From assembly GCA_963788395.1 (NCBI GenBank), contig CAWBGV010000028.1:18102-82101 (forward strand): a stretch of DNA of 64,000 bases, written 5' to 3'. Below are positions 16,381-56,678 of this stretch, in pieces. The first letter of the stretch is position 1. Each line of letters starts with the position of its first letter. The position numbers and the translations under genes were made by a program. The DNA comes from Candidatus Doudnabacteria bacterium (GTDB lineage: Bacteria > Patescibacteriota > Doudnabacteria > UBA920). The notes under the pieces are model-generated. The model was not told where the DNA came from. It saw nothing but the letters and a program-made list of their open reading frames with translations, and ran no database searches.

Positions 16381-16446
16381 CTTTTTTCAGACAATAAGAA
16401 AGGGCGTGTCGGCAAAAATACCGGCGCGCCCTTTTTTTGGTTACGG

Positions 16447-16707
16447 TCACATCACGCGACTGGTCGGCAGCGCTTCAGAGACCAATTCTTCCATTTCCGG
16501 AGTTTCTCCGCGAGCCGGAAGTTTGCGTGAAGCGAGAATAAGGTCTTTCAATCGTTCCCTCTCCTTCAGAGGCAGGAATTGTTCAAGGCCGTCGACGGCC
16601 TTTAGTCCAGCCATCTGATTGTTAAATACCCTTACGCCGAAGGTTCCTTGTAGCACGCCAAAAGTCGTCGGCGGATTTTCAAACTGTTCAACCGTAAATT
16701 TCACCAT
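16447..16707 (-). CDS. hypothetical protein
   Basis: 86-aa ORF with a gaggtg SD-like sequence upstream. Confidence 0.45.
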   Translation of the reverse strand: MVKFTVEQFENPPTTFGVLQGTFGVRVFNNQMAGLKAVDGLEQFLPLKERERLKDLILASRKLPARGETPEMEELVSEALPTSRVM

Positions 16708-39404: not shown

Positions 39405-39480
39405 TGGTGGGCGTGCTAGGACTCGAACCTAGGACCAATCGTGTATAAGACGACCGCTCTACCAACTGAGCTACACGCCC
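39405..39480 (-). tRNA. tRNA-Ile(UAU)
   Basis: GGGCGTG TA GCTC AGTTGGTA GAGC G GTCGT CTTATAC ACGAT TGGTC CTAGG TTCGAGT CCTAG CACGCCC A CCA. Positions 34-36 are TAT. Confidence 0.8.
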
Positions 39481-45156: not shown

Positions 45157-46329
45157 TTAGCTTTTTATCTTCACAAATTTTCTTTTCCCAACCTGTAAAA
45201 CTATCTCCGCCCCGGCTTCTAGTTGTATATTCTGTTCCGACACCGTCTGCTGATTCATTTTAATGCCTTTTTGATCAAACAATCGACGAGCGTCGGATTT
45301 GCTCGAAGCAAGCCCGGTATCTGTCACTAGTTGAATCACCGAGTACGTCCCCGGCTTCATTTTTTTTACTGCAATTTCTTCGGGTAATTCGCCTTTGCTG
45401 AACTGGGCAATAAAGGCCTGCTTGGCCTCGGCCGCTTTGTTAGCACTATGATATAAGGCGGTTATTTTTTCGGCTAAAATAAGTTTTTGGTCGCGGGGGT
45501 TGTTATTTTGGGAAATAATAGTCTGGATTTCTTCCAGCGGAACGCGTGTGGCCAAGAATAAAAAATTTTTTTATTAAGCCGTCATTAATAGACATTACTT
45601 TACCGAACATGTCGTTAGGCTCATCGGTAATATTAATCACGTTTCCCCAGCTGGATGACATTTTTCGGCCATCAGTCCCTTCCATCAGCACTGTCATAAG
45701 TATGTCTTGCGGAGCCTGTTGGTAGGCCGGCTGGATGGTTCTGCCGGCCAATAAATTAAAGCGCTGGTCGGTACCGCCTAATTCTACGTCGGCTTTAACC
45801 GCAACGGAATCGTAGCCTTGCATAATCGGATAGAGCAGTTCCCGAAGCGAAACCCGCTTACCGGCTTTTAACCGGAGGGCGATGTTTTCGCGGGCTTCAA
45901 ATTCGGGTGCAGCCCAAATAAATTAGCCATCCGGCCGATCTCGATAAAGCCTAATTTTTTAAGCCATTCTGAATTATAGTGGGTCTCGGTCTTTTTTTTA
46001 TCAAGTATTCTAAAAGCCTGCTCAAAGTACGTTTTGAGATTTTTTTTAATTTCCGCTTCACTGAGCATGGGACGTTCGGCGTCTTTATCGGAAGTGTCGC
46101 CAATCAGCCCGGTAAAATCTCCTACTATAAAGATAACCTTATGACCGAGTTCCTGGAACTGCCGCAGTTTCCACAAAACTACTGCCCGACCAATATGGAT
46201 ATTGGGGCTGGTGGGGTCTATACCCAGCTTTACTCTTAATTTTTTCTTGCCATTAAGCAATTGCCGCAAGTGGTCTTTTTCTATGACTTCATCCACGCCG
46301 CGGGTAAGGAGTTCGTCTATGGGGTTCAT
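45157..46329 (-). CDS. tyrS: tyrosine--tRNA ligase, two apparent frameshifts
   Basis: HIGR (HIGH motif), GGTDQRFN, KMSSS (KMSKS), C-terminal S4-like domain. Pieces: 45868-46329, 45503-45823 and 45157-45555. The shifts lie near 45913-45918 and 45548-45572. Confidence 0.9.
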
Positions 46330-46876
46330 ATGATTATATAATATCAGTTTTTTATGAACCCTTCCAACCGATCCACTTGACAACTCTTCCTAAACCCTTT
46401 AATATAACTAAGGATTTAGAAATTAAATCTTGGAGATTAAAAAAGGCATAACACCGCTAGTCCAATTTTACTCTTATGTAAGCCAAATCTGCTAACGCAG
46501 AAGGTTGATTATAAGGGGTCCGCCAATAGGTGGAAAACTAGGACACTTCAAGTAAGAAACTTGGGTGTTTTTTTAGCCCCTAATTTCCAACACTGCTCTT
46601 TAACAGCTGAATAGTGATTAGAATTTTGTACAAAACCATCGCGTCTCAATTATTTAAACCAATTGAGATGTGAAAACCCGAAAATTTCCGTCCCGGAAAT
46701 CTCGGGGTAAAGTTACGTCAATTTACTAGAGTTCAATGATAATTTATAAGCTTTAATAATTGAGCTTTTCCCAAATCAATTATGCCAGATTTGTATCATT
46801 TTGGTACGGATCGAACCGGATACTATAGATTCCGTTTGGTTAATTCCAAACACCAAGAATTTATTTATCTTTTATA

Positions 46877-46920
<44 letters not shown>

Positions 46921-47623
46921 GACATGCAAGTCGAGTGGGTTTAGACCCACGGCGAACGGGTGAGTAATACCTAGGAATGTCCTTTAAGTTGAGCATATCC
47001 CATCGAAAGATGGTGCAATACTCAATGTGAACAGTGCAAGCACTGTAGATCCCGTTACTGGAATTTACAACGCTTGCGTTTTTAAAGTCGCAAGACGCTT
47101 AAAGCGCAGCCTGGGCACCATCAGCTAGTTGGTAAGGTAATGGCTTACCAAGGCTATGACGGTTAGGGGCCCCGAGAGGGGAAACCCCCACACTGGAACT
47201 GCGACACGGTCCAGACTCCTACGGGAGGCAGCAGTTTGGAATTTTGGACAATGGGCGAAAGCCTGATCCAGCGACGCCGCGTGGACGATGAAGGCCTTCG
47301 GGTCGTAAAGTCCTTTTGCTCGGGAACAATTTTTGAGCGTACCGAGAGAATAAGAGGTTGCTAACTCTGTAAGCCCACACAGGTGGGTTGGTGCAGAGAG
47401 GGTGTAGTAATACATCCTAAGAAAATTTCGCTATATGCTGGAACACCTTGTAAGTTCTGTAGTACTTCCAAAAGAAGTGACAATCTACAGGAAACCCAAA
47501 AAAACGCACCGCTGCGTATAAGGGTTGCAAGACAATCAGCAGGCAATCCTGACGTAAATTTTTGGAAAAAAGAAAACGGAGACAGCCAGTAGCTATCCCC
47601 GTCATGTATTTGGTTTTTGGTTA

Positions 47624-47695
47624 TCATCGGTCAGCGGTTCTATACAAGATGCCGACTACCCCTACGATTACAGTAATTACGATAATCAACCACAT
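47624..47695 (-). CDS. 23-aa hydrophobic peptide encoded antisense within the 16S insertion
   Basis: aaggagg, 7 nt, ATG, MWLIIVITVIVGVVGILYRTADR*. Its stop overlaps (ATGA) the start of the 88-aa ORF 47361-47627. Confidence 0.4.
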   Translation of the reverse strand: MWLIIVITVIVGVVGILYRTADR

Positions 47696-47718
47696 ATTTC
47701 ATCCTCCTTGAACCGTTT

Positions 47719-47747
47719 AAGATAACACAAGTGGATGATCAAGTCAA
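47719..47747 (-). promoter_or_regulatory. sigma70-type promoter for the antisense peptide cassette
   Basis: On the minus strand: TTGACT, 17 nt, TATCTT, about 20 nt upstream of the SD. Confidence 0.45.
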
Positions 47748-48391
47748 TACAGTTGGCTTCCAAAAATTTGCGTCAGGCGAGCCTCAGAGACTACACGCGA
47801 AACTCCCACGTTAAGGTGGGATGATGATATAGTCCACGCTTCATGGCGACATGAAGACCTGGTCCCGAAAGGGGCCCCCAAATTGCTTTTTACATTTTAG
47901 TTTTTTCGACCGAGAGGGAGAAAAAAACATAGAGAAAAGGAATTTGGGGAAGAGGAGCGCTTCACGGAGACGGCACAAAATAAATTTACAATTTATTTTG
48001 TGGAGTCGGAGTGAAGGGCGACGAGCCAGCAGCAGCGGTAATACAGAGACCTCAAGCGTTATCCGGAATCATTGGGCGTAAAGCGTACCGATAGGTGGTT
48101 TACAAAGTCAGAAGTGAAATCCAAAGCTTAACTTTGGGACTGTCTTTTGAAACTTGTAAACTAGAGGGGCAAAGAGGAAGCTGGAACGAACGGTGTAGTA
48201 GTGAAATGCGTTGATATCGTTCGGAACACCAATAGCGTAGGCAGGCTTCTGGGTGCCACCTGACACTGCTAGGACGAAAGCGTGGGGAGCGAATGGGATT
48301 AGATACCCCAGTAGTCCACGCTGTAAACGATGATGATTAGGTGCTAGAGAGTATCGACCCTCTTTAGTACCATAGCTAACGCGTTAAATCA

Positions 48392-48442
<51 letters not shown>

Positions 48443-48446
48443 ACCT

Positions 48447-48480
<34 letters not shown>

Positions 48481-49260
48481 GTAAGCGAGGAACCTTACCA
48501 AGTCTTGACATGTACCTGCATACTCTGGAAACAGAGTAGCCTTCGAGGGTGGTACACAGGTGATGCACGGTTGTCGTCAGCTCGTGCCGTGAGGTGTTCA
48601 CTTAAGTGTGAAAACGAGCGCAACTCCTATCATAAGTTACAAGTGTCTTATGAAACCGCCGGCGTTTAAGCCGGAGGAAGGCGGGAATGACGTCAAATCA
48701 GCGTGTCTCTTACGACTTGGGCGACACACGTGCTACAATGGGGAGAACAAAGGGACGCCAAGGAGCAATCCGGAGCAAATCCTATCAATACTCCCCCCAG
48801 TTCGGATTGAGGGCTGCAACTCGCCCTCATGAAGCCGGAATCGCTAGTAACCGTGGATCAGCCTCGCTACGGTGAATACGTTCTCAGGTTTTGTACACAC
48901 CGCCCGTCAAGCCATGGAAGCGGGAAGCGGCTAAAGTACCTTTATGGTCCTAGGCCGAAGCTCGTAACTGGGGCTAAGTCGTAACAAGGCATCGGTAGCG
49001 GAAGCTGTCGATGGATCACCTCCTTTCTAAGGAACTTTATGCATCCTTTTCCCTTTTCGAAGGGGAATGTTGGTGCACATTCCATTGGTCGTCGTTAATT
49101 TTTTCGAAAATTAGCGCACTTCTTGAAACTTCAAAGAACGACGTAAACTGGTGGTTTTGTAAGGTAATTCTACCGTATTTAGCAATAAATACGGCCTGAG
49201 CGCCAAAATGCTCGGGGTCACTATTTAGCCGTTAAAGGCTTAACACGAAATTGCAAAGAA

Positions 49261-49290: not shown

Positions 49291-49365
49291 ATGTTCTATG
49301 CAAAAACGTCACTTGAATCAACCGCTAAAGTAGGAACTTTAGCGCCAATCTCCAATGATTTGACA

Positions 49366-50262
49366 ATGAGCCAGCTCATTCCGCAGTTCCTGAAGTACGG
49401 CCAGTTTGAATTAATGTTCTCACAAAACACGCTTTTAAAATACGACGAGTGCTTAAAGTGGGTAGTCAGGGACATCGGCGACGTGAAGGTCACCGAATTA
49501 AACCTATTCCATTTCACTGAATTAAAGCAAATAATAACGAACCGTGGTTGCGGCACCAGCCGTGTTGCTTCCATGGTGTTTTCCATGAAAAGTTTCCTAA
49601 AGTATTGCAAGGACTATCTGGAGTTGCCGGTGATGGATTACAAAAAAATCCGTAGCCCAAGGTTTAAGCGCCGGGAAGTGATTTACTTAACTAATGAAGA
49701 AATTGAGCGATTTGTCAGCGCCATTAAAATAAAGAATGGCCCTCGCGCTACTAAGCCGGTGCGTATGGACGGCCTAAGATTTAGGGTCTTGGTAGAAGTC
49801 CTTCTTGGTACCGGCATGCGCATCTCTGAAGCTTTGTCACTAAACCGCGATATGGTCGATTTTGAAAAGGCTGAGGCCAAGATTATCGGCAAAGGCAGCA
49901 AGGAACGCACCGTGTTTTTTAGCAAGCGGTCGCTGGATTGGGTTAAACGTTATCTGTCCCTACGCACAGACAATGAACCCGCATTGTTTCTCACCCAGCA
50001 GAATACGCGCCTGTCCAAGATAGATGTCCCCGGCTTCTTTAAGCGCTACAGCAAGAAGGCCGGTATAACCAAGAAACTGACGCCGCACGTGCTCAGGCAT
50101 ACCTGCGCCACAAACCTGTTGTTTAACGGCTGTCCCATAAATAACGTTCAAGTAATTTTAGGCCATGACCGCTTGGAAACCACTTGCCGTTATTATCTCG
50201 GCGTTGACAAAACTAAGGCCAAGGAAGCGCACGGCAATTATTTAAATTATCAATTGTCGTAA
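49366..50262 (+). CDS. tyrosine recombinase (XerC/D-like integrase)
   Basis: SAM-like N-domain, then ARMDGLRFRVLVEVLLGTGMRISE, HVLRHTCAT, LGHDRLETTCRYY. The ORF opens at 49291, directly after the terminator, so the internal ATG (MSQLIPQF) is preferred. Confidence 0.8.
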   Translation: MSQLIPQFLKYGQFELMFSQNTLLKYDECLKWVVRDIGDVKVTELNLFHFTELKQIITNRGCGTSRVASMVFSMKSFLKYCKDYLELPVMDYKKIRSPRFKRREVIYLTNEEIERFVSAIKIKNGPRATKPVRMDGLRFRVLVEVLLGTGMRISEALSLNRDMVDFEKAEAKIIGKGSKERTVFFSKRSLDWVKRYLSLRTDNEPALFLTQQNTRLSKIDVPGFFKRYSKKAGITKKLTPHVLRHTCATNLLFNGCPINNVQVILGHDRLETTCRYYLGVDKTKAKEAHGNYLNYQLS

Positions 50263-51038
50263 TTCATGAACTTTGTGTGTGCCGCTTTCAGCGCCCGTTT
50301 ATCGGTTCCCAGATAATACTGGGCCGTGGTGCGAATGTCCGAGTGCCCCAAAAGTTCCTGAATATACCGGATGTCGCAGCCATTTTCCAACATGATCGTC
50401 GCGGCAGTGTGCCGCAGCGTATGCGGCGTGACTTTTTTCTTGATCCCGGCCTTGGCGGCGTATCTTCGAAATTCCTTGCCCAAATCGTAACGAGCAAGCC
50501 GCTTGGCTTTGCCGAACGTCACGAACAAGGCCGGGTTGTCATCGGTTCGGCTTTGCAGGTACTTGTTTATCCATTCCAAAGCGCGGTCGTTGAAGAAGAC
50601 CACTAATTCCTTATTGCCCTTAACGATGATCGTCGCCTCTTTTGTCTGCAAATTTATACTGTCGCGGTTAAGGTTTAAAGTTTCCGAAATGCGGCCGCCG
50701 GTGTCTAAGAGCACTTCCATTAAGGTTCTTGCTCTTAAGCCGTATTTAGTATTAACGTCAATGCTGCCTAACAGCTGCCGGACCTCGTCTTTGGTGAGGA
50801 AGACAACTTGGCGTTTTGGGATTTTCATGGGCTTGATCTCCTTTGGATCTAAAGTCGGGAGTTTATGAACATCCCGACAATAAGTTAAAAATTTTCTTAA
50901 TGAATAGACGAATGAATTGACTCGGGAAGGGCCGCAGCCGCGCCCCGTTGCGCGGGAGATCCGCGCCAGGGTTTGTTTTTTTATTTTAGTGACGTGCTCA
51001 AGCCTTAAATCAGACGGGTTTTGAACTTCGGGAAGCAT
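50250..51038 (-). CDS. tyrosine recombinase (XerC/D-like integrase)
   Basis: GLRARTLMEVLLDTGGRISE, HTLRHTAAT, LGHSDIRTTAQYY. It converges on the previous gene, and their 3' ends overlap by 13 nt. Confidence 0.85.
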   Translation of the reverse strand: MLPEVQNPSDLRLEHVTKIKKQTLARISRATGRGCGPSRVNSFVYSLRKFLTYCRDVHKLPTLDPKEIKPMKIPKRQVVFLTKDEVRQLLGSIDVNTKYGLRARTLMEVLLDTGGRISETLNLNRDSINLQTKEATIIVKGNKELVVFFNDRALEWINKYLQSRTDDNPALFVTFGKAKRLARYDLGKEFRRYAAKAGIKKKVTPHTLRHTAATIMLENGCDIRYIQELLGHSDIRTTAQYYLGTDKRALKAAHTKFMNYDN

Positions 51039-56226: not shown

Positions 56227-56678
56227 AAGATATTACCTTTCTGCCGGCGTAGATAGCACGAAGCCCCGCGCCAGCCGATCCCTTGCGGGATCCATACCCG
56301 TTTCCGGATATGGCCATAGAAAGCTGCTGAACGCGGGGTTCAGTGCTTTCTATGGTCTTGAGCGCCATGCCACCAGCTTGCGCTGGGGGTTTAGGCATTA
56401 AGTTGTTATTTGGATTATAAATCAAAAACACCTTAAAATCAAGGTTTTTTATGCAATTATACCTTTGAGCTAAGGGGATCCTATTTTTTTGACTTACTTC
56501 TAATAATTATCACCTCTACGTTCCCATGCCAGTCAAAAATTCAGATCAGGGGTCGTCGGCCTAATATCTTTCGCTATAATATGCAACCATTATTGTATCG
56601 CCACCAATTCGATTTTTTGTTATGATAATAAAGAATTTAAGCAAAAATTAGGTATTAAATATCCTAAAATAAGACAAG

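Follow-up and report, generated by a model that had tools for sequence, protein, structure and literature searches.

The 16S rRNA gene in the window (the whole 64,000-nucleotide stretch of DNA that was analysed) is interrupted by a group I intron, and the terminal loop of helix P6 of this intron contains a complete antisense cassette, in which a promoter, a Shine-Dalgarno (SD) site, a 23-codon ORF for a hydrophobic peptide and an intrinsic terminator follow one another on the minus strand. Judged from its sequence, the cassette is on balance probably a genuine gene unit that is carried as intron cargo and that is functional now or was so recently. If a genuine gene that merely rides along as a passenger is counted too, the cassette is quite likely to be a genuine gene unit.

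The 16S rRNA gene and its intron were identified with Rfam models and are located as follows.

46870..49026, plus strand: bacterial 16S rRNA gene (RF00177)
47371..48024, plus strand: group I intron, the insertion in the 16S rRNA gene, between U516 and G517 in E. coli numbering (RF00028)

The alignment to RF00177 contained a gap of ~660 nt at model positions of about 512–516. RF00028 matched 47361–47856 of the plus strand with 55.6 bits, above its gathering score of 50, and the intron extended ~170 nt past the end of the Rfam model. Exon 1 terminated with ...GCUAACUCUGU (U516) and exon 2 began with GCCAGCAGCAGCGGUAAUAC (G517), and by this reading of the exon junction the insertion comprises 47371–48024. 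P1 (CUCUGU/GCAGAG) could be read, including a U.G pair where the 5' splice site lies, as could P10, which is formed with the 3' exon (GCCAGC/GUUGGU), and the guide sequence of the intron was conserved in the alignment of homologues. Provided that the mature 530 loop is of canonical length, the intron would end in A48024, at the place of the terminal guanosine (omega-G) of group I introns. The same A/GCCAGC junction was also found in the related introns L003, L077, L103, L108 and others, and other relatives ended in G. The ORFs of the intron had no Pfam match, and no homing-endonuclease domain (LAGLIDADG, GIY-YIG, HNH or His-Cys) was found in them; exact look-up of 10 ORFs from the intron region found none on record as a called gene. 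A 19-mer from the 3' extension of the intron had 8 matches in metagenomes, in which the agreement was confined to a 19–21-nt pattern and did not include the rest of the intron. Relatives of the neighbouring tyrosyl-tRNA synthetase (TyrRS) are annotated as Parcubacteria, Moraniibacteriota or Patescibacteria, which places the organism in the CPR/Patescibacteria. When the TyrRS gene was used as a synteny anchor, a relative with 77% TyrRS identity (L129) had no 16S rRNA gene beside TyrRS.

GTDB species genomes were scanned for 16S rRNA genes in which the base before G517 was other than T, which gave at least 119 stretches. Related introns were recovered by blastn and two profile HMMs, one for each half of the ribozyme, and numbered at least ~25, all at 516/517. 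In this family P6 was a short hairpin whose sequence varied while its pairing was kept (CCCCG/CGGGG, CCCCT/AGGGG, CCTCCGA/TCGGAGG and others), with compensatory changes at 5 of 11 predicted pairs. The introns differed in the length and the content of the P6 gap.

Gap of 19–37 nt, a short loop: L003, L103, L107, L002, L004, L011, L036, L050, L098, L119, L030, L084
Gap of 138 and 150 nt, structured ORF-less hairpins: L077, L108
Gap of 427–680 nt, LAGLIDADG or LAGLIDADG-like coding sequence: L115, L039, L117, L042
Gap of 235 nt, the antisense cassette: the intron of the window

The P6 loops of L117 and L042 contained genes for 199-aa LAGLIDADG endonucleases on the sense strand, and those of L115 and L039 contained putative LAGLIDADG-like coding sequence. 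Going by these sequences, the P6 terminal loop is the site where cargo sits in this intron family.

On the minus strand of the intron, the motifs that the earlier note had listed (TTGACT, 17 nt, TATCTT, AAGGAGG, 7 nt, ATG at 47695 and 23 codons) were all found at the positions that it gave. The parts of the cassette, in the order of transcription, are as follows.

47742..47747, minus strand: -35 hexamer TTGACT, 5 of 6 positions matching (motif scan)
47719..47727, minus strand: extended -10 element TGtTATCTT, with TG before TATCTT (47724–47719)
about 47711–47714, minus strand: predicted transcription start
47703..47709, minus strand: Shine-Dalgarno motif AAGGAGG, 7 nt before the ATG
47624..47695, minus strand: 23-codon ORF, MWLIIVITVIVGVVGILYRTADR plus TGA, with the ATG at 47695 and the TGA at 47626–47624
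47575..47603, minus strand: intrinsic terminator hairpin with a 13-bp stem and a 3-nt loop, 20 nt past the stop codon
47565..47574, minus strand: TTCTTTTTTC, the U-tract of the terminator, which extends into the arm of the P6 stem

The spacer between the -35 and -10 elements was 17 nt. An in-frame TGA was located two codons upstream of the ATG, so the start codon is fixed. The encoded peptide is hydrophobic from W2 to Y18 and ends in the tail RTADR, and the earlier description of a single hydrophobic helix with a charged C-terminal tail was correct. Its mean hydropathy was 1.65 (Kyte-Doolittle), and Ile, Val and Leu made up 14 of its 23 residues. The codon-usage log-odds of the ORF was +0.15 bits per codon, compared to 0.05 ± 0.10 for hydrophobic segments of host genes and -0.08 ± 0.16 for hydrophobic open stretches in non-coding frames. 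The codon usage of the ORF is compatible with that of host genes and weakly favours coding.

The terminator hairpin had a predicted stability of -19.3 kcal/mol on the minus RNA versus -9.1 kcal/mol on the plus RNA, where the fold is weaker because four G.U pairs become A.C. With its own terminator (47603–47575 plus the U-tract), the complete antisense cassette that had been proposed to lie within the 16S insertion is fuller than was claimed. The unit of promoter, SD site, ORF and terminator is ~180 nt long and ends ahead of the ribozyme core.

The stop codon of the 23-codon ORF overlaps the start of an 88-aa ORF (47361–47627) in the sequence ATGA, and the 88-aa ORF ends 7–10 nt from the insertion boundary at 47370/47371. 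Both features had been pointed out before and are present in the sequence. The translational coupling that had been proposed on account of the overlap, however, was not borne out. The intrinsic terminator (47603–47575, -19.3 kcal/mol) sits inside the 88-aa ORF, which is antisense to ribozyme helices P1–P6, and the frame that corresponds to it is not intact in L003, L077, L084, L011, L050, L098, L119 and L108, owing to stops or frameshifts. The 88-aa ORF had 0 Pfam matches and 0 relatives among 5.8 billion proteins, and no called gene on record corresponds to it. It is spurious and is no part of the cassette unit.

The cassette occupies a segment of ~230 nt in the P6 terminal loop; in the Rfam alignment, a block of 220 nt was unaligned within P6. 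The segment is closed by an extension of P6.

47548..47567, plus strand: 5' arm of the 20-bp closing stem (extended P6), inverted repeat (blastn-short, 95% over 20 nt)
47568..47757, minus strand: interior of the cargo, the entire antisense mini-gene, missing from all homologous introns listed
47758..47777, plus strand: 3' arm of the 20-bp closing stem (extended P6), inverted repeat (blastn-short, 95% over 20 nt)

The 20-bp closing stem was present in MFE folds. At its one mismatched position, the plus (intron) RNA has a U.G wobble and the minus RNA has A.C, so that the two hairpins show opposite strand asymmetries: the U.G pair of the closing stem works only on the intron strand, and the four G.U pairs of the terminator work only on the antisense strand. 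The fit is tight, as the -35 element sits 10 nt from one arm of the stem and the U-tract of the terminator abuts the other. The position is the same spot in the P6 terminal loop, a peripheral loop, at which L117 and L042 carry their LAGLIDADG genes, and the cassette exactly fills this looped-out cargo position.

Several other descriptions of the cargo were considered. As a decayed LAGLIDADG gene it was rejected, because blastx and tblastx comparisons with the genes of L117, L042, L115 and L039 returned only noise. As a structural expansion of P6 it was also rejected: the interior had no significant structure on either strand when its fold was compared with shuffles (plus-strand z of -1.6, minus-strand z of -0.9), unlike the ORF-less P6 expansions of L108 and L077, which folded strongly (z of -11.2 and -5.5, respectively). 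When tested as a miniature inverted-repeat element, the cargo was found to possess terminal inverted repeats (20-bp arms with 1 mismatch); no direct repeat that could represent a target-site duplication flanked the arms, and neither the window nor 0.95 Mb of loci contained a second copy of the cargo at the DNA or the peptide level. The cargo also had no Rfam match at E ≤ 1.

Conservation of the segment in homologous insertions, a check that the earlier note had proposed, was not found. The segment was missing from all of the ~25 related introns listed, which were recovered among the at least 119 stretches with an altered junction, and intron positions 183–411 (47553–47781) had no counterpart in any homologue listed, most of which have just 15–37 nt at that place. 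The cassette is thus not a trait of the intron family as a whole. L003, the closest among the introns listed, with 91% identity in the 16S exons and 76% identity in the intron, has an 8-nt loop at the cargo site.

Expression signals of the kind seen in the cassette are in general use in the host. The 3' end of the 16S rRNA reads GGATCACCTCCTTTCT / GGAUCACCUCCUUUCU and contains the anti-SD sequence CCUCC. Five tRNA genes and a LOOT RNA, which was also found in the window with Rfam, are preceded by TTGnnn-17/18-TAnAAT at a distance of 9–19 nt, and a candidate promoter of the 16S rRNA gene, TTGACA-17-TAATAT (10/12 match), is located 464 nt upstream of that gene. About nine hairpins of -15 kcal/mol or better followed by a T-run were found in the window, the terminator of the cassette among them, and about six of these ~nine sites were located just after long ORFs, i.e., at gene ends. 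Promoters of the sigma-70 type, SD sites and hairpin terminators are all employed by the host.

Chance counts were taken over 1.9 Mb of strand-sequence, consisting of the window and 130 loci. Singly, the signals of the cassette were not rare: sites that match the promoter as well as that of the cassette does (9/12) were found 7 times versus 5.2 expected in 4 kb, and AAGGAGG was near the level given by composition, with 5 observed versus an estimated expectation of ~6.6. Promoter-like sites overall numbered 163 per 128 kb. Among the 94 SD-led ATG ORFs of 18–40 aa, the ORF of the cassette had the highest hydropathy (1.65, the next being 0.89), and only 0.43% of 6268 small ORFs reached the hydropathy of its peptide. 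A terminator of -15 kcal/mol or better was found within 80 nt of 13 of 465 SD-led short ORFs. The scan yielded 27 SD-led short ORFs with a terminator; 9 rows also had a promoter-like site, which represent 8 distinct loci, since two of them are alternative starts at the cassette, and the cassette was the most hydrophobic. The product of the separate frequencies, 6.3 x 0.0043 x 0.028 x 0.083, amounts to ~6e-5 such units expected per 64-kb window, a rough figure that presumes independent features and was made after the fact. Taken jointly, the signals of the cassette look too complete for chance. Given this joint expectation and the use of such signals by the host, the cassette was read as a genuine gene unit. 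When the 130 loci were scanned for an SD site, a short ORF and a terminator, their rRNA introns yielded no hydrophobic cassette comparable to that of the window. The only candidate antisense to an intron core was a non-hydrophobic 30-aa ORF in L084, which was judged to be a chance occurrence.

No relative of the peptide or of the cassette was found in the collections searched. A degenerate pattern of the peptide (M-W-5 hydrophobic-T-3 hydrophobic-G-2 hydrophobic-G-2 hydrophobic) had 0 matches in JGI metagenomes and IMG/VR, a pattern of the SD site plus the N-terminus had no match in IMG/VR, and neither cassette nor peptide had a match in phage and plasmid collections. Searches of the peptide against Pfam, NCBIfam, PADLOC and PHROGs returned only sub-threshold matches to unrelated transmembrane segments. 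The cassette is thus an orphan with a single occurrence in the data reached, and because of this single occurrence, selection on the ORF is not measurable.

If the cassette is expressed as its signals predict, RNA polymerase would start near 47711–47714 and produce an RNA of ~145 nt with an 18-nt leader, from which ribosomes would translate the 23-residue peptide. The peptide would then be inserted into the membrane with its Arg-containing tail inside. The terminator would halt antisense transcription ahead of the ribozyme core and the 16S exon, and the closing stem would keep the cargo looped out and thereby allow the intron RNA to splice. The earlier note had stated that any mRNA of the cassette would be perfectly complementary to the pre-16S transcript; by geometry this complementarity is complete, and it applies to the intron part of that transcript. 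Because the cassette faces the rRNA promoter, head-on transcription and the formation of a duplex with the abundant intron RNA or pre-rRNA should hold its expression down and keep it off during growth. An antisense promoter within the most heavily transcribed operon may rarely fire. By this logic, which resembles that of type I toxins, the peptide would be made mainly when rRNA synthesis drops. A more far-reaching scenario, which we regard as unlikely, is that the intron has swapped a homing endonuclease for an antisense gene of a type-I-toxin-like peptide, which would be silenced by the intron or pre-rRNA and whose output would be inverse to rRNA transcription. In an organism with a single rRNA operon, such a gene might serve as a growth-rate or dormancy switch or as a killer that stabilises the intron.

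The sequence data bear differently on the other explanations of the cassette. A real small gene may have been copied into the P6 loop from elsewhere in a genome, e.g., during break repair or after loss of an endonuclease gene, and may be a neutral passenger or relic there, without a role and kept only because the stem makes it harmless to splicing. The segment is unique to the lineage of the window among the homologous introns listed, its intact signals point to a recent acquisition, the tolerance of the P6 loop for insertions is proven, and there is no sign of a conserved partnership between intron and cassette, all of which would agree with a passenger. However, no donor copy was present in the 64-kb window or the 0.95 Mb of loci, and the very tight fit between the stem arms, as well as the orientation of the cassette away from the exon with its own terminator, looks adapted rather than accidental; we hold a passenger to be credible but rather unlikely. 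It is less likely still that the segment is a variable P6 expansion in which promoter, SD site, ORF and terminator are chance matches seen after the fact. The unremarkable frequency of the single signals (7 promoter-like sites versus 5.2 expected, and AAGGAGG near composition), the ORF-less P6 expansions of 138–150 nt in relatives and the lack of conservation of the cassette in the homologous introns listed are as coincidence would have them, but the joint expectation is ~6e-5 per 64-kb window, and the interior does not have the strong RNA structure of P6 expansions (z of -1.6 versus -5.5 and -11.2). Moreover, the fold of the terminator hairpin gains 10 kcal/mol on the antisense strand, and the loop is filled exactly by parts that are all correctly ordered and spaced. 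We prefer to read the cassette as a genuine gene unit whose function is current or recent.

Two more specific roles were also weighed. Type I toxin-antitoxin pairs include Ibs/Sib, with a fully overlapping antisense RNA, and also Ldr, Fst, TisB and Hok. Similar to such pairs, the cassette has a tiny hydrophobic peptide that is charged at one end, a promoter of its own, a strong SD site and a perfectly complementary RNA from the opposite strand. If it were a classical addiction system, the peptide would be a membrane toxin, the intron RNA would be the antitoxin, and cells that lose the intron would be killed. A peptide of 23 aa (<60 aa) with one hydrophobic helix and a charged tail, full complementarity by geometry to an abundant RNA and the precedent of Ibs/Sib-like pairs all accord with this. 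The likeness to type I toxins that had been noted before is, however, one of architecture only. By profile, the peptide was not a member of the known toxin families (Hok/Gef, Ldr, Fst, Ibs, TisB, ShoB, TxpA/BsrG and others), and no Rfam antitoxin RNA was found at E ≤ 1 within 46700–49200. Different from type I pairs, the cassette has no family homology and no long structured 5' leader, and no dedicated antitoxin gene or small RNA unit accompanies it, the sole complementary transcript being the rRNA precursor and its intron part. Since toxin and antitoxin would share the same DNA, killing could be set off only if the intron were lost entirely, a rare event in a single-copy rRNA gene, and small membrane peptides are not all toxins. 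In addition, the ~25 related introns listed persist without the cassette, so the cassette is not needed to keep the intron and a general addiction role is unlikely. Our confidence in a toxin action of the peptide is low, and a classical toxin-antitoxin system is quite improbable here. The least probable role, with very little in its favour, is that of a leader-peptide attenuator of the ilv type that would control antisense read-through. Ile, Val and Leu do account for 14 of the 23 residues, and the terminator is 20 nt past the stop codon, but the predicted transcript contained no convincing antiterminator pairing, and downstream there is only the antisense of the ribozyme core and of the 16S 5' domain, with nothing to regulate.

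A genuine gene unit of this kind differs from the known cargo of group I introns. Genes other than those for homing endonucleases do occur in group I introns, for instance the rps3 gene of a fungal mitochondrial LSU intron and the IS200/605 genes of IStrons. The window cassette resembles these in that a gene that is not for a homing endonuclease is located at a looped-out position of the intron. Different from the window cassette, however, the rps3 and IStron genes are large, lie in sense orientation and encode members of known protein families. Group I introns of bacterial rRNA genes are generally regarded as either empty or bearing a homing endonuclease, and Brown et al. in 2015 reportedly described group I introns in 16S genes of CPR bacteria that were ORF-less or contained LAGLIDADG genes.

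Of the 16S genes of CPR/Patescibacteria, 48% contain insertions, and a count of the ORF-less group I introns in such genes gave 49 (Tsurumaki et al., 2024, PMC11270868). The cargo of CPR rRNA insertions consisted of Pfam-annotated ORFs for LAGLIDADG and GIY-YIG endonucleases or the 23S_rRNA_IVP protein (PMC11270868). The intron of the window is similar to the CPR 16S group I introns of that study in clade, kind of element, host gene and peripheral-loop position of the cargo, and it would be filed there as ORF-less; its cargo, in contrast, is an antisense mini-gene with no endonuclease. The text of that paper mentions no antisense mini-gene for a membrane peptide that runs from promoter to terminator, and it does not use the terms 'antisense', 'small ORF' or 'opposite'. 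Because surveys of CPR rRNA insertions seek only Pfam-annotated ORFs, an antisense gene of 23 codons would be invisible to them.

Antisense genes are known from group I introns of eukaryotic nuclear rDNA, such as L2066, which carry homing-endonuclease genes in antisense orientation (PMC9548176). Similar to the L2066 introns, the window intron carries a gene in a peripheral loop, opposite to the rRNA and ribozyme strand, which needs expression signals of its own. The genes of L2066 introns, however, encode eukaryotic His-Cys box endonucleases that drive mobility, and they have Pol II-type signals and spliceosomal introns, whereas the window cassette encodes a 23-aa hydrophobic peptide, has bacterial signals and has no link to mobility. 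In the literature, no report was found of a bacterial rRNA intron with a small-peptide gene that is antisense and has its own terminator, and no paper was found that links group I introns with type I toxins or with bacterial antisense intron genes.

Even as a mere passenger, the cassette would show that entire foreign transcription units can be captured and sheltered by the P6 loops of introns. An expressed cassette would be the first reported gene in a bacterial rRNA intron that is antisense and does not encode an endonuclease, and it would be a small-peptide gene whose sole antisense partner is the most abundant transcript of the cell. Expression would also connect ribosome synthesis with a membrane peptide in a way that can be tested, in organisms for which growth in isolation is not yet possible.

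The 3' junction of the group I intron inserted between U516 and G517 (E. coli numbering) of the 16S rRNA gene, and the intron region preceding it, were as follows:

48020-48030, 3' intron junction, read from the sequence
47857-48024, 3' extension of the intron, ~170 nt past the end of the Rfam model

Group I introns universally end with a G. If the mature 530 loop is of canonical length, however, the final base of this intron would be A48024 instead. Alternatively, splicing after G48023 would keep an additional A in the 16S rRNA, while splicing after G48025 would remove G517 from it. Among the matches listed, the A|GCCAGC junction that places A48024 last was also found in ~10 related introns at the same 16S site, including those of loci L003, L077, L103, L108, L030, L098, L115, and L117, whereas other related introns ended with G. 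In the flanking exons (47357-47359 and 48034), U and A replaced G and C at 16S positions ~505 and ~526, respectively. With both positions changed together, the 530 loop retains its 505-507/524-526 pseudoknot pair.

Two long hairpins with imperfect pairing, at 47876-47949 and 47957-48019, made up the 3' extension, which among the matches listed was common only to L003, including identical blocks of 18-19 nt. Two related introns possessed P6 expansions without an ORF:

L108 3439-3588, minus strand, 150 nt, z -11.2
L077 2355-2492, minus strand, 138 nt, z -5.5

Their folding energies relative to shuffled sequences indicate very strong RNA structure, and they represent a different type of P6 cargo from the antisense peptide cassette of the window.

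Other features of the window included:

16401-16432, strong bidirectional terminator after the 34-codon ORF
16447-16551, minus strand, 34-codon ORF with SD, MKDLILASRKLPARGETPEMEELVSEALPTSRVM
39405-39480, minus strand, tRNA-Ile, anticodon UAU
45157-46383, minus strand, tyrosyl-tRNA synthetase (TyrRS) gene adjoining the 16S gene
49291-51038, two convergent, overlapping tyrosine-recombinase (Phage_integrase) genes
56277-56397, minus strand, LOOT RNA (RF03000, 88.9 bits)

The 34-codon ORF may be an unannotated small gene. tRNA-Ile(UAU), which is uncommon among bacteria, had a sigma-70-type promoter (11/12 match) 9 nt upstream, and a TTGATT-17-TATAAT promoter sequence was found 16 nt upstream of the LOOT RNA.

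The TyrRS gene was broken into several ORFs. As TyrRSs of the relatives L129 (6001-7180) and L130 (1419-2548) were also divided into two adjacent or overlapping ORFs (187 + 211 and 250 + 126 aa, respectively), the gene is more likely to be naturally split or to undergo a programmed frameshift than to contain a sequencing error. In L129, the syntenic side of TyrRS carried penicillin-binding-protein genes and no 16S gene. Given this difference and the integrase genes directly 3' of the 16S gene, the 16S region of the window may lie in a rearranged or mobile context.
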